This document shows positions 12,507 through 17,894 of a stretch of 64,000 nucleotides of DNA, piece after piece; within the stretch, counting starts at the first letter, position 1; the number at the start of each line of letters is the position of its first letter. Both the position numbers and the translations under genes were made by a program. The stretch comes from Ostreococcus lucimarinus (lineage: Eukaryota): assembly GCA_000092065.1 (NCBI GenBank), contig CP000581.1; one strand, written 5' to 3'. Under the pieces are notes generated by a model, which was given only the letters and a program-made list of their open reading frames with translations, had not been told where the DNA came from and searched no databases.

Positions 12507-12782
12507 TCAATCCTCCTCCTCGCTCTCGTCCTCGTCCTTGGCGTTGATCCTCTCGCACGCGTCGATCCAATCGCTGTACACGTCGATCGGTTCGCTCAGG
12601 TGCGTGATGTTGCACGTGTACTTCTGTCCGCACGTCCCGCACTCCACCAGCCCCTTCTCGGCGACGTGATCGAGTCGCGCGAACACGCTCTTGTCGTGAT
12701 TGCAAAACGGACACGTGAACGTCGTGTCCACCTTCGGGGCCACCTTCTTGGGCGGCGGCTTGGAGCTCTTGCGCTTGCCCAT
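12507..12782 (-). CDS. ELF1: Transcription elongation factor 1 homolog (ELF1, Zn-ribbon)
   Basis: MGKRKSSKPPPKK...FTCPFCNHDKSV...ECGTCGQKY...IDVYSDWIDACE plus an acidic tail; 91 aa. This is the classic Elf1 C4 zinc ribbon. The rest of the listed 237-aa ORF is GC-rich read-through. Confidence 0.85.
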   Translation of the reverse strand: MGKRKSSKPPPKKVAPKVDTTFTCPFCNHDKSVFARLDHVAEKGLVECGTCGQKYTCNITHLSEPIDVYSDWIDACERINAKDEDESEEED

Positions 12783-12840
12783 GGCGAGCGCGCGCGGGCG
12801 GTCGTGCGACGAGCGATGCGGCGCGCGCGCGACTCTGCGG

Positions 12841-12880
12841 ACGGGACGACGGACGACGGACGACGGACGACGGACGACGC
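12841..12880. repeat. (GGACGAC)n heptamer repeat in the ELF1 / APH-kinase divergent promoter
   Basis: acgggacgacggacgacggacgacggacgacggacgacgcg seen directly. Confidence 0.75.
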
Positions 12881-13037
12881 GCGCGCCACACGCGCGCGCG
12901 AACGACGCGCGGCGCGAGCGATGGCGACGCGCGCGAACGCGCGCGGCGCGCGCGCGACGCGCGCGAGCGCGCCGACGGTGACGTCGCGCGTCGCGCGGGG
13001 ACGGCGCGTCGCGGATAAAACGCGTGGGACGCGCGGG

Positions 13038-14025
13038 ATGACGGCGGCGGCGAGCGTGGCGTCGACGAACGAGTCCGCGGAGGCGGCCGCGGCGCCGGCG
13101 GTGGTGTCGACGTCGACGTTCGCGAGCGCCGACGACGCGGAGCTGCGCATGACGTGCGAGGCGTTCGCGCCGGGGAGCGCGTTCGCGCTGACGGATACGA
13201 GCGGCGGCGTGAATAATCACGTGCGATATTGCGATTGCGAGAACGGTGAGCGATTCGTCGTTCGATTATATAATAATGGACGCGAAACCGAGCGTGTTTG
13301 AACTCATTCCTGGTTCGCTCCCGAAGACGCGCTTCGCCGACGCGGTGGGAGAGGCGACGGCGGCGCTTTCGAAGTGTATGGAAGAAGCCGAAAGCGAAGT
13401 GCGTGCCGTTGCTCCGGTGAGCCCGACGAGCGTGTATCGGGACATCTTCGGAGCGTTCATCAAGAAAGGTGGGTCGCGCGATGCATTTTTCGTCGAGGCG
13501 GAGACGAACCCAGGTTTGGATGCCGTTCGAGTTTCGGTGAACGACTTGCTCAACTCTATTCGCGTACTTGAAGAAAAATTGGCCGACATCGAATCTTCGG
13601 GAGGCTTACCCGAGACGCTGATCCACGGCGACGTCCATTACGATAATTCCCTCGCGGATGAGACGACGGGTAAAGTCACGGGCATCATCGACTTTGAGTT
13701 TGCATCGTACGACTGGCGTATGATGGAAGCCGCCGCAGGTTTGTCCAAGTACGTCGGCGAACGCGATCCTCTGCCGTTCGTTGTCGACTACATCAAGGGA
13801 TTTTGCCGGCGCGCGACGCCGACCGAGGCCGAGATCGACGCCCTTCCGGACTTGATAAAACTTCGCGTGCTCGAAACCGTCGTGTACTTCGTCGCGAGAA
13901 GCGCCGCGAAAGAAGACGACATCTCGCAACTAGCGCTCAGAGCCGAAAACTACGCCGCGCGCGTTCGATGGATCGACGCCAACGCGCAAGTCATTCGCGA
14001 CACCATGCGCACCGCGCTCGCGTAA
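13038..14025 (+). CDS. APH-fold phosphotransferase (homoserine kinase type II / aminoglycoside-phosphotransferase-like). The reading frame is broken between the N-lobe and the C-lobe.
   Basis: The N-lobe in frame 0 (about 13038-13298) reads ...ALTDTSGGVNNHVRYCDCENGERFVVRLYNNGRETERV*, which is the Gly-rich loop plus the VxLK-type beta3 strand. The C-lobe in frame +1 (13246-14025) carries LIHGDVHYDN (HGDxHxxN catalytic loop) and IIDFEFASYDWRMME (DFE metal-binding motif). The frames can only be joined by a 1-nt shift near 13285-13295 or by an unconventional intron. See findings. Confidence 0.55.
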
Positions 14026-14186
14026 ACGATCGTTATTTTTTAACTATTCTTTCTCCATTCACTCGCGCGCTCGCGCGCTCGCGTTTTCGCTCTTCACTAA
14101 AACCGTAAAATCCACGCCTGGATGCAATCTCGAGATCTTCGTATGCGCAAACAGTCGCGGGCGACGCGACGGCACAACTCGACACG

Positions 14187-15557
14187 ATGCTTTCGACGAC
14201 CATCACCACCCCGAGCGCTTTCGTGAAGCCGCAAGCGCCGCGAACGCGCGTCAAGGCGCGCGCCGACAGCACCATGGCCCCGCCCACGACGCGCGTGCCG
14301 CCGAGAAACCCCGAAGGTGCGCGACGGCGCGATCGATGCGCGCCGACGCGATGTCGTGGTTTATCCAGTGCGATGGGTGACGATGACGACGCGTGTGACG
14401 GCGTGCGATGCGTGAACGACGCGATGGGGATGAGAAAGGATGTGAAATGATATCGATCGCCGCGAAACGCGTCGACGCGGGCGAACGCGATGACTGACGA
14501 GTGTGGATGACGATTGATTGCTCCAGGCGCGCCGACGGTGGTGCCGCAAGATTTGCCGAGCCGACCGCGACGCAACCGCCGCTCGCCGACGGTGCGAAAG
14601 GCGTTCCGCGAGACGATTCTCACGCCGGATAACTTCATTTACCCGATTTTCGTGCACGAGGGCGATGAGAACATTCCCATCGGTTCTATGCCGGGACAAG
14701 ACCGCCTGAGCTTCAAGAATGGCATGATCAAGCAAGTGCGCGAGGCGCGCGCGGCCGGCGTGAACCAAGTGGTCGTCTTCCCGAAGACCCCGGATAACTT
14801 GAAGACGGCTTGCGGGAAGGAGGCGTTCAATCCGAACGGCTTAGCCCAACGCTCGATCTCGTTGTTGAAGGATACGTTCCCCGATTTGGAAGTGTACACC
14901 GACGTCGCGCTCGATCCGTACAACACTATGGGCCACGACGGCATGGTGCGCTCCGACGGCGTCGTCATGAACGACGAAACGGTGTACTATTTGTGCCAAC
15001 AAGCCGTGTCCCAAGCGCGCGCGGGTGCTGATGTTATTTCTCCGTCCGATATGATGGATGGTCGCGTCGGTGCCATTCGCCAAGCGCTCGACGACGAAGG
15101 TTTCACCAACGTCGCCATCATGAGTTACACCGCCAAGTACAACAGCGCGTACTACGGTCCGTTCCGTGATGCCTTGGCGTCGGCGCCGCGTCCGGGTAGT
15201 GAAGACTGGAAGATTCCGAAGGACAAGGCTGAGTACCAAATGGACCCGGCCAACTACCGTGAGTGCTTGCGCGAAGCTGCTCTCGATGAACAAGAGGGCG
15301 CGGACATCATGATGGTCAAGCCGGCGGGCGCCTACTTAGACATCATCCGCGCGCTTAGAGACAGCACCACGCTCCCAATTTCCGCGTACCAAGTGTCTGG
15401 CGAATACTCCATGTTGAAGGCTGCCGCCGCGGCGGGTTACCTTAACGAACGCGATGCGGTCTTGGAATCCTTGATCGCCATCAAGCGCGCCGGAGCCGAC
15501 TTGACGTTAACGTACTATGCCATCGATGCCGCCAAGTGGATCCAAGAAGGCAACTAA
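14187..15557 (+). CDS. HEMB: Delta-aminolevulinic acid dehydratase (porphobilinogen synthase), Mg-type, with a transit peptide encoded on a separate 5' exon: join(14187..14316,14527..15557)
   Basis: Exon 2 is unmistakable ALAD: PRRNRRSPTVRKAFRETILTPDNFIYPIFVHEGDE..., DVALDPYNTMGHDG in place of the Cys-rich Zn site (so plant/plastid Mg-type), and the active-site Lys region MVKPAGAYLDII. Exon 1 reads MLSTTITTPSAFVKPQAPRTRVKARADSTMAPPTTRVPPRNPE, which is Ser/Thr/Arg-rich and transit-peptide-like. Donor G|GTGCGC at 14317; acceptor TGATTGATTGCTCCAG| ending at 14526. The join is in frame and gives ...NPE-G-APTVVPQDLPSRPRRNR, as in plant ALADs. Confidence 0.8.
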
Positions 15558-15795
15558 GTTGAACGCGAGTAGGACATACATTTTTAATATCGATGATTAC
15601 GCAATGATTTACGAACGAGCGCCGACGAAGGAGGCAAAACAGGGCGAATGCGCATGAGGTCGGCGAAGCTTCTGACTTTTCACTACACCGCTGATGAAAT
15701 CTAACTCAAACCTCGAGACGCTCCAGCGCTAGACACCGCTCTCGACGATCTAGGGTCGATCATATTCGATCGAATTCTCCACTCCACGCGACCAC

Positions 15796-16549
15796 TTAGT
15801 AGAAGTAGCCGAGCACCTTGCCACCAACCTTCTTGCGACGGGCCTCCTCGTGGTCCATGATGCCCGACGACGTGGTGAGCACGATGACACCAAACAAACG
15901 AGAGGGCAAAAGTCGACCAACCCAGTCCTCAAGGTCGTGGTGGGACAAATCATAACGCGGGCTACGAGTTTAAAACCATTCATCGTCAGTCTCCGAGTCT
16001 TAATCGACGTTTAAAGAAGACGCGCTTCTCGACGAGCGTTCGCGCAGACCCTAAAACACACGCACCTGATGACGCCGCACTTGTTGATACGTCCGTTAAG
16101 CTCAACGACGATCTTTCCCGCTCTGTGATCATCAATGAACTCGAATTCGTTGATGTAGCCTATTCGTTGTAAACCATTCCGTCGTCAGTCTCCACATTCA
16201 TCCTGTGATGCGCGCGCCGCTTTCAGGATCGTTCGCGCGCGTCCCGCTCGCGTTCCCCTCTCTTCACACGTACCGTGCTTTTGCATCACTTGCAAGAACT
16301 TGATCACCACCTTGGAAACCGGGCGCACGAGCACCTGACGCTTCCCACGCTTTTCCGCGTTGTACATCGACTCTGCAGAGCGCGCGAACACGATCGATCG
16401 CGAGGTTAGTCACAGACCCTAAAACACCACAGCGCGAGGACGCGATTCGGCGCCGTCGCGACACGCGCGACGTCGCGACGCGTCATAACGCGCGTGCGAA
16501 CGATGATAGACGTACTGAGAGTGTCATTCAAGACGCTGATTCGGACCAT
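15796..16549 (-). CDS. RPS15A: 40S ribosomal protein S15a (uS8), 4 exons: complement(join(15796..15961,16066..16159,16274..16372,16516..16549))
   Basis: Not in the ORF track as one unit. The spliced translation is [130 protein letters not shown] (130 aa). It is colinear with human RPS15A (130 aa) at about 70% identity. Donors: A|GTACGT, G|GTACGT, AG|GTGCGT. Acceptors: TCTGCAG|, CGAATAG|, CTCGTAG|. Exon lengths 34+99+94+166 = 393 nt, and all phases are consistent. Confidence 0.9.
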
Positions 16550-16679
16550 GGCGCTTGTCTCTTGACCGCACGCGTCGTCTAAAGGCGGATGCGACTGGCC
16601 GCGCGAGGGCTTTCGACTTCGTGGTCCGTGTGGCAAGACCGACATTAGGGCTTTCAGCGCTTTCGAGGCCGTCGGGCGT

Positions 16680-16805
16680 CTGAAGGAGTCTGCTCGTGAT
16701 ACGGACGACGACGATGGTCATCTGAAGGAGTCTACTCGTGATACGGACGACGACGATGGTCATCTGAAGGAGTCTACTTGTAATACATACATACGATGAA
16801 GATCG
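16680..16805. repeat. 42-bp tandem repeat, about 2.7 copies, upstream of RPS15A
   Basis: tctgaaggagtctgctcgtgatacggacgacgacgatggtca is followed by a near-identical copy (g to a) and then a degenerate third copy. It lies about 130-250 bp 5' of the RPS15A ATG on the minus strand, immediately 3' of the cyclophilin gene. Confidence 0.75.
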
Positions 16806-17894
16806 TCATCTAAAGGATTCTAGGACGCCGGCGCGGACGATTTTTGCCTCGCCCGTGGGCTCGCCGTCGGAAGAGGCCAACTTGTTGATCGCCCAAGCGT
16901 GCTCCATGCCGTCGACGACTTCGCCAAAGATGACGTACGAGCCATCTAAATGCGGCGCTGGGGCCATGACGATACTAAAGTGCCCTGTGTTGGTGTTTGG
17001 TCCGGCGTTGGCGACGCTTAGCAAACCAGGCCGGTCGTGTTTGAGTCGCAAGCCGCCGGGATCGTCGTCGAACGCTTTTCCCGGATTCACAGCACTTCCC
17101 GAGGCGGTGTGCGACCCTGTCTGGTCAATGAATCGGTCGAGAATTCTATAAAACTTCGAACCGACCCATGTATACTCTTCCGAAGGTTCGCCCACGCACA
17201 TTCGTCGGAAATTTTCCGCCGCGAGCGGGCTCGTGTCGGCGTACAATACAAATTCGATGCGCTCCGCGTCAGCGCCGTCGATGGAGACGTCGAGGTACAC
17301 GCGATGATTCCCTTTGGCGTGGCGTCTTTTAGTCTTCGCTCTTTCTTCTGCGTTGACTTCTTCCTCCGCTTTTTCCGCTTCTTCCGATGAAAACAACGCC
17401 CCGCTCGTCCATCGAGAGTCACCGCCTCGTCGTTCCGCGGCAAACAGTGCCCGCGCCGCGTTCTTCGCGTCGTACTTCAACCAACACTCCCCGCGCTTTC
17501 TATCACCTCCGCACCCCCCTTCGTCGCCGCACCAGACCCATACGTTACATTTTCTCGCGCTCTCTTCGCACGCTCGGCAGCACGCCTCGGCGCTCGACGT
17601 CTTGAAATCGCTGCCCCAGCGCACGACGCCGCCGTCGAGCTCAACGCGAGCCCCGACGTCCGCACCGCACGTTCCGGTCATCGATGATCGTCGTGAATCG
17701 ATCGCGCGCACGACATCGACGTCATCGACGCCATTTACGTCGCTCACGAACGCGCGCGAGTGCGACGTGATTGGATTGTTCACGATGACGTAAAACGCGA
17801 GCGCAACGGCGGCGGCCACGGAGTAACGCACCGTACGCAGAAGCGCTCGAGCGTCGACATTTCGTCTGTACTGCCCGCCACGCGCGAGAGCCAT
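16806..17894 (-). CDS. Membrane-anchored cyclophilin-type peptidyl-prolyl isomerase with an N-terminal PAN/Apple-like Cys-rich domain
   Basis: N-terminal signal anchor (YSVAAAVALAFYVIVNN). PAN-like Cys pattern FKTSSAEACCRACEESARKCNVWVWCGD...GECWLKY. C-terminal cyclophilin domain VYLDVSIDGADAERIEFVLYADTSPLAAENFRRMC...FYRILDRFIDQTG...GHFSIVMAPAPHLDGSYVIFGEVVDGMEHAWAI. Confidence 0.75.
   Translation of the reverse strand: MALARGGQYRRNVDARALLRTVRYSVAAAVALAFYVIVNNPITSHSRAFVSDVNGVDDVDVVRAIDSRRSSMTGTCGADVGARVELDGGVVRWGSDFKTSSAEACCRACEESARKCNVWVWCGDEGGCGGDRKRGECWLKYDAKNAARALFAAERRGGDSRWTSGALFSSEEAEKAEEEVNAEERAKTKRRHAKGNHRVYLDVSIDGADAERIEFVLYADTSPLAAENFRRMCVGEPSEEYTWVGSKFYRILDRFIDQTGSHTASGSAVNPGKAFDDDPGGLRLKHDRPGLLSVANAGPNTNTGHFSIVMAPAPHLDGSYVIFGEVVDGMEHAWAINKLASSDGEPTGEAKIVRAGVLESFR

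Follow-up and report, generated by a model that had tools for sequence, protein, structure and literature searches.

The window, the whole 64,000-nt stretch of DNA that was analysed, very probably holds the nuclear HEMB gene for porphobilinogen synthase (ALAD) of Ostreococcus lucimarinus or a near-identical strain, divided into two coding exons and specifying an enzyme with a putative plastid presequence and predicted Mg2+ use. The start codon, ATG 14187–14189 on the plus strand, is confirmed in the sequence; upstream of it the first in-frame stop is at 14100–14102, with no in-frame ATG in between. The donor GTGCGC occupies 14317–14322, the acceptor CTCCAG ends at 14526, and the Gly44 codon is reassembled from G (14316) and GC (14527–8). 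The joined coding sequence specifies 386 aa without an internal stop and ends with TAA. Its product is identical at 386/386 residues to XP_001415482.1 (ABO93774.1; UniProt A4RR03), a 386-aa protein of O. lucimarinus CCE9901 deposited as 'predicted protein' and listed as delta-aminolevulinic acid dehydratase in UniProt. This identity shows that the two-exon model was already in the public annotation; the gene structure is ordinary and known.

A preliminary description made from the raw sequence had proposed the ATG at 14187, a donor at 14317, an acceptor ending at 14526 and a 210-nt phase-1 join. Sequence, cDNA-type contigs, homology and the deposited protein agree that these positions are correct to the base. 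The same description took the gene model to be completed by the upstream exon, and the product indeed equals the deposited protein and contains a full-length PF00490 domain. The raw-sequence reading recovered exactly the deposited model, which spliced transcripts from environmental samples now support as well. Beyond quality control the significance is small; neither the intron distribution nor the content of exon 1 would surprise a specialist.

In the mechanical listing the long ALAD ORF begins at TTG 14514, and its first in-frame ATG lies well within the conserved domain. It had been described as starting with this TTG directly at a conserved mature N-terminus. As the listed beginning of the ORF the TTG is correct; conservation, however, does not begin at APTVV, which marks the boundary of exon 2, but ~14 residues earlier (APPTTRVPPRNPEG), inside exon 1. 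In the gene model, exon 1 encodes a presequence of ~30 hydroxylated, basic and acid-poor residues followed by the first ~14 conserved N-terminal residues, the U2-type GT-AG intron interrupts the Gly44 codon in phase 1, and exon 2 supplies what remains of the N-terminal arm together with the TIM-barrel catalytic domain.

Table 1. Features of the ALAD gene and their positions in the window
Feature	Positions	Strand	Description
Exon 1	14187..14316	+	130 nt; codons 1-43 and first base of Gly44; colinear with 10 spliced contigs
Presequence, residues 1-30 (MLSTTITTPSAFVKPQAPRTRVKARADSTM)	14187..14276	+	putative chloroplast transit peptide
Exon-1 part of conserved motif, APPTTRVPPRNPE(G)	14277..14316	+	conserved in Ostreococcus, Bathycoccus and Micromonas
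Intron	14317..14526	+	210 nt, phase 1, GT-AG, spliceosomal; donor GTGCGCG 14317-14323
Branch-site motif GACTGACG	14492..14499	+	predicted branch A at 14497; exact match to published motif
Exon 2	14527..15557	+	last two bases of Gly44 to Asn386 and TAA 15555-15557; whole PF00490 domain
Asp-rich metal motif DVALDPYNTMGHDG	14901..14942	+	residues 169-182; A171, D173 and D181 replace Zn cysteines
Lys247, first Schiff-base lysine	15135..15137	+	equivalent to P. aeruginosa K205; invariant among aligned relatives
Lys308, second Schiff-base lysine	15318..15320	+	equivalent to P. aeruginosa K260; invariant among aligned relatives

Spliced transcripts and the start of translation

Many short contigs encode exactly the 386-aa protein; ten of these (L006–L015) were fetched as the transcript set. 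Their sources are Logan assemblies of eight SRA/DRA runs, JGI sample 3300026465 and ENA ERZ4843228, which together represent at least nine sequencing runs. Each contig carries the coding sequence as an unbroken 1161 nt and aligns to the window by BLAST with 98.3–100% identity, in two blocks that omit 14317–14526. The 50-nt junction sequence (14292–14316 joined to 14527–14551) is present without mismatch in all ten, and an unspliced donor or acceptor was found in none of them. The cDNA-type contigs confirm the proposed 14316/14527 junction, and among the ten there is neither a transcript that starts downstream of 14450 nor one that uses another donor/acceptor pair.

L006 starts with CAACGCAGAGTACGGG, the tail of a SMART template-switch oligo, and therefore derives from cDNA. 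In L011 and L012 the two mapped introns of RPS15a, the gene next to ALAD, are missing as well; L006 lacks the one that it reaches. The metagenomic (METAG) contig L005, 99.6% identical to the window, keeps the ALAD intron, with no differences inside it and four in exon 2.

The 5' ends of the spliced contigs bear on where translation begins. L011, L012 and L015 begin at 14187 and L014 at 14186, four contigs from four different runs; the six others run upstream of 14187 into the neighbouring gene, and L013 opens at 13997 with three G that are non-templated. In de Bruijn assemblies the end of a contig often reflects a break in the graph and not the end of an RNA. The starts at 14186/14187 may mark a transcription start with a near-nil 5' UTR, or they may be assembly-graph breaks. 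If the former is true, use of the AUG at 14187 would need explaining, as almost no 5' UTR would precede it.

One reading of these ends retains the same intron but has transcription start at or near 14187, the cap-proximal AUG skipped and translation begin at Met30 (14274), which would leave the enzyme without a presequence. The recurrence of the 14186/14187 start in four runs and the strong ACCATGG context of ATG 14274 speak for it. We nevertheless consider it improbable: six contigs continue upstream of 14187, Met30 is replaced by L, A or P in relatives, and every relative, the transcript-derived ones included, has a presequence of 30–61 residues with the same character. The deposited model, too, begins at 14187, and the ALAD of plants and algae is located in the plastid (PMC6262466). 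It is similarly doubtful that a major transcription start lies at the ATG, with initiation at a cap-adjacent AUG or a skip to Met30 that would yield a second ALAD isoform without presequence. If true, a near-leaderless ALAD transcript would point to unusual control of initiation or targeting in a minimal eukaryote. We retain the start at 14187.

A 34-codon out-of-frame uORF (14122–14226; ATG 14122, second ATG 14144) overlaps the ALAD start codon. It would be relevant only if transcription began upstream of 14122.

Presequence and metal class of the enzyme

Plants and green algae carry out the tetrapyrrole pathway, as far as protoporphyrinogen, in their plastids. The N-terminal peptide encoded by exon 1 had been characterised as rich in Ser, Thr and Arg and poor in acidic residues, and residues 1–30, of which 9 are Ser/Thr, 5 Arg/Lys and only 1 acidic, fit this description; over the remaining 343 residues the net charge is -8. 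The presequences of relatives share this character but no sequence conservation, whereas the region downstream of them is conserved. Solved bacterial and apicomplexan chains align only from residue ~52 onward. The protein has an N-terminal extension that is absent from bacterial homologues, Ser/Thr-rich, net positive, acid-poor and poorly conserved, as transit peptides are. The preliminary description had placed a transit peptide on a separate 5' exon. The composition fits this assignment, but exon 1 is not presequence alone, as it also encodes ~14 conserved residues.

From composition, variability among relatives and the plastid location of plant ALAD, residues 1–30 are best read as a putative chloroplast transit peptide, which would direct import into the plastid and be cleaved somewhere before residue ~30. 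Basic, hydroxylated and acid-poor N-termini are common to plastid and mitochondrial presequences, and this one might instead target the mitochondrion, or both organelles. This is still less probable than a start at Met30, given that Arabidopsis ALAD1 is plastid-located (PMC6262466) and that the deposited name of the Micromonas commoda orthologue includes 'chloroplast precursor'.

Arabidopsis ALAD1 consists of a transit peptide, then an N-terminal arm, then the barrel (PMC6262466). Its predicted transit peptide (ALAD1/HEMB1) has 52 aa, and the Ostreococcus presequence is much shorter. If the Arabidopsis domain map (PMC6262466) is transferred by a plain offset, the 'N-terminal arm' would begin near residue 2 of the Ostreococcus protein, which may mean that the presequence has fewer than 30 residues or that the arm is shorter.

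The catalytic part of the protein belongs to a well-defined family. PF00490 (ALAD) matches residues 55–381 with E=7e-128 and 426.6 bits against a cut-off of 24.6, and the match covers profile positions 2–317 of 317. The Asp-rich motif DVALDPYNTMGHDG aligns with DVALDPFTTHGQDG of the Mg2+-dependent Pseudomonas aeruginosa enzyme (1B4K), so that A171, D173 and D181 correspond to A129, D131 and D139; D218 corresponds to D176 in the same alignment. The columns of the motif are invariant in the alignment of relatives. Ala, Asp and Asp thus occupy the Zn-cysteine positions within D-x-A-L-D-P-x(5)-G-x-D-G, the pattern of the plant-type subclass. Plant ALAD binds Mg2+, whereas the animal and yeast enzymes have three cysteines and Zn2+ at the equivalent site (PMC6262466). 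Like Arabidopsis ALAD1/HEMB1, pea ALAD, the Toxoplasma gondii enzyme (3OBK) and 1B4K, the Ostreococcus protein has an Asp-rich site in place of the Cys-rich Zn site, and it shares with these plant-type enzymes both Schiff-base lysines and the layout of a transit peptide, here putative, N-terminal arm and barrel. The protein is accordingly assigned, at the level of motifs, to the plant-type Mg class, and the motif together with the behaviour of plant ALAD suggests use of Mg2+ rather than Zn2+. Its earlier designation as a Mg-type ALAD holds at this level. A plastid-bearing host of the green lineage had also been proposed, and the host is indeed a plastid-bearing green alga; among named organisms, its nearest relatives are Ostreococcus, Bathycoccus and Micromonas.

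Splice junction, intron signals and intron history

Enumeration of the sequence yields fifteen canonical GT-AG pairs that could join both ORFs in frame and stop-free, so the splice pair was undecidable from the sequence alone. That another of these pairs is used, or that ALAD begins within the long ORF and has no relation to the upstream one, is hardly credible: all ten spliced contigs use 14316/14527 and none another junction, the conserved PEG-AP motif is restored by 14317/14526 only, and a start at the first ATG of the long ORF would delete the conserved RPRRNR arm. Every other GT-AG pair is ruled out by the ten contigs and homology.

In a protein alignment, the sequence TTRVPPRNPEG/APTVVPQDL (the slash marks the exon junction) is conserved throughout the Mamiellales, a prasinophyte order. 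The corresponding motif reads TTRVAPRNPEGCPTVPPQDL in the O. mediterraneus cluster, TTRVPPRKPEGAPTVPPQDL in a third Ostreococcus-like lineage and TTRVPPTNPEGMPVVPPQDL in Bathycoccus, and the PEG(A/T)P core is also conserved in Cymbomonas and Chlorella. When two contigs from related Ostreococcus (L001 and L002) are compared with the spliced window, their alignments cross the junction with no gap.

The intron carries the signals of its genome. In EST-confirmed O. lucimarinus introns outside chromosome 2, the donor consensus is GTGCGTG (Irimia and Roy 2008, PMC2483917); 87% of these confirmed introns contain ACTGAC and 66.5% contain GACTGACG, the distance from branch site to AG is ~20–35 nt and CGCAG is preferred at the 3' end (PMC2483917). 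The ALAD intron resembles this class in having GACTGACG, a spacing of 26 nt between ACTGAC and the terminal AG, within the range of 20–35, and a donor that agrees at 6/7 positions; it differs in a C instead of T at donor position +6 and in the 3' end CTCCAG instead of CGCAG (PMC2483917). Its donor, branch site and branch-to-AG spacing also match both transcript-verified RPS15a introns of the window, which are delimited by transcripts as GTGCGT...GACTGACG...AG (minus strand, 16065–15962) and GTACGT...GACTGACG...AG (minus strand, 16273–16160). The ALAD intron is a U2-type intron typical of the bulk-genome class of O. lucimarinus. A scan of 13900–16800, which covers the intron and its surroundings, for structured RNA returned no Rfam family at E<=1.

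The first 11 nt of the intron (14317–14327, GTGCGCGACGG) are similar to the 12 nt with which exon 2 opens (14527–14538, GCGCGCCGACGG), and the BLAST alignments of the spliced contigs extend 11 nt into the intron. This resemblance probably arose by chance in CG-rich sequence. We reject intron gain by tandem duplication: the match is short for a CG-rich genome and the intron is common to Micromonas.

The top matches in the protein collection are ALADs of Mamiellophyceae, including Bathycoccus prasinos at 90% identity; the deposited O. lucimarinus protein falls in the cluster of a 99%-identical match. In M. commoda RCC299 (XP_002507193.1), a phase-1 intron lies in the equivalent Gly54 codon (LPDG/TP), and comparison of its genomic sequence (L016) with its own transcript (L017) places this first intron after CDS nucleotide 160. 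The M. commoda gene also has a presequence of the same character and forms a convergent pair with RPS15a; unlike in O. lucimarinus, the first intron is 92 nt long, two further introns follow and the presequence has ~40 aa. An intron of 208 nt, GTGCGT...CGCAG, occupies the same codon and phase in a second Micromonas-like contig (L004). The B. prasinos ALAD (P0008, FO082278.1) matches 91% of the query at the identity given above and contains the TTRVPPTNPEGMPVVPPQDL motif, yet its coding sequence is a single exon with no intron here, and its presequence is longer and rich in Ser, Thr, Lys and Met.

Micromonas is the outgroup to Ostreococcus and Bathycoccus in the established phylogeny. Because Micromonas and Ostreococcus share the codon and phase of the intron, the simplest reading given the accepted branching order suggests an old Mamiellales intron that was lost in Bathycoccus. 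We rejected a position that is ancient across green algae: the first intron of Chlorella sorokiniana lies about four codons upstream (AQR/RGVPEG), which is not a homologous position.

Neighbouring genes

Upstream of ALAD, on the plus strand, lies a kinase/APH-like gene (~12750–14025), from which the window lacks 146 nt at 13289–13291. This segment (TCGAGTGGCG...GATTGCGGGA) is present in the cDNA contigs L006 and L007, and its 3' part stands at the ends of the metagenomic contig L005 and the JGI contig L008. When the segment is included, the gene reads as a single uninterrupted ORF of at least 432 aa, whereas its halves in the window (ORFs 12600–13301 and 13246–14025) are in different frames. 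The source of the window therefore has, in this gene, a frameshifting deletion, a strain-specific pseudogene or an assembly error. Bathycoccus lacks this kinase-like gene upstream of ALAD.

Downstream, RPS15a (Ribosomal_S8 family; 15796–16650, minus strand) converges on ALAD. In addition to its two transcript-mapped introns (16065–15962 and 16273–16160), the ORF pattern predicts a third. In several cDNA-type contigs ALAD and RPS15a are joined, suggesting either that their 3' UTRs overlap or that the assembly merged them. Bathycoccus, Micromonas and O. mediterraneus have the same convergent pair.

The locus is flanked by a gene for an Elf1-type zinc-ribbon protein (12507–12782, minus strand) and a PAN/cyclophilin gene (16806–17894, minus strand). 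Both flanks stand in the same order in B. prasinos FO082278.1, where the synteny runs Elf1, ALAD, RPS15a and PAN-cyclophilin; in Bathycoccus, a ribosomal L23 gene lies between RPS15a and the cyclophilin gene.
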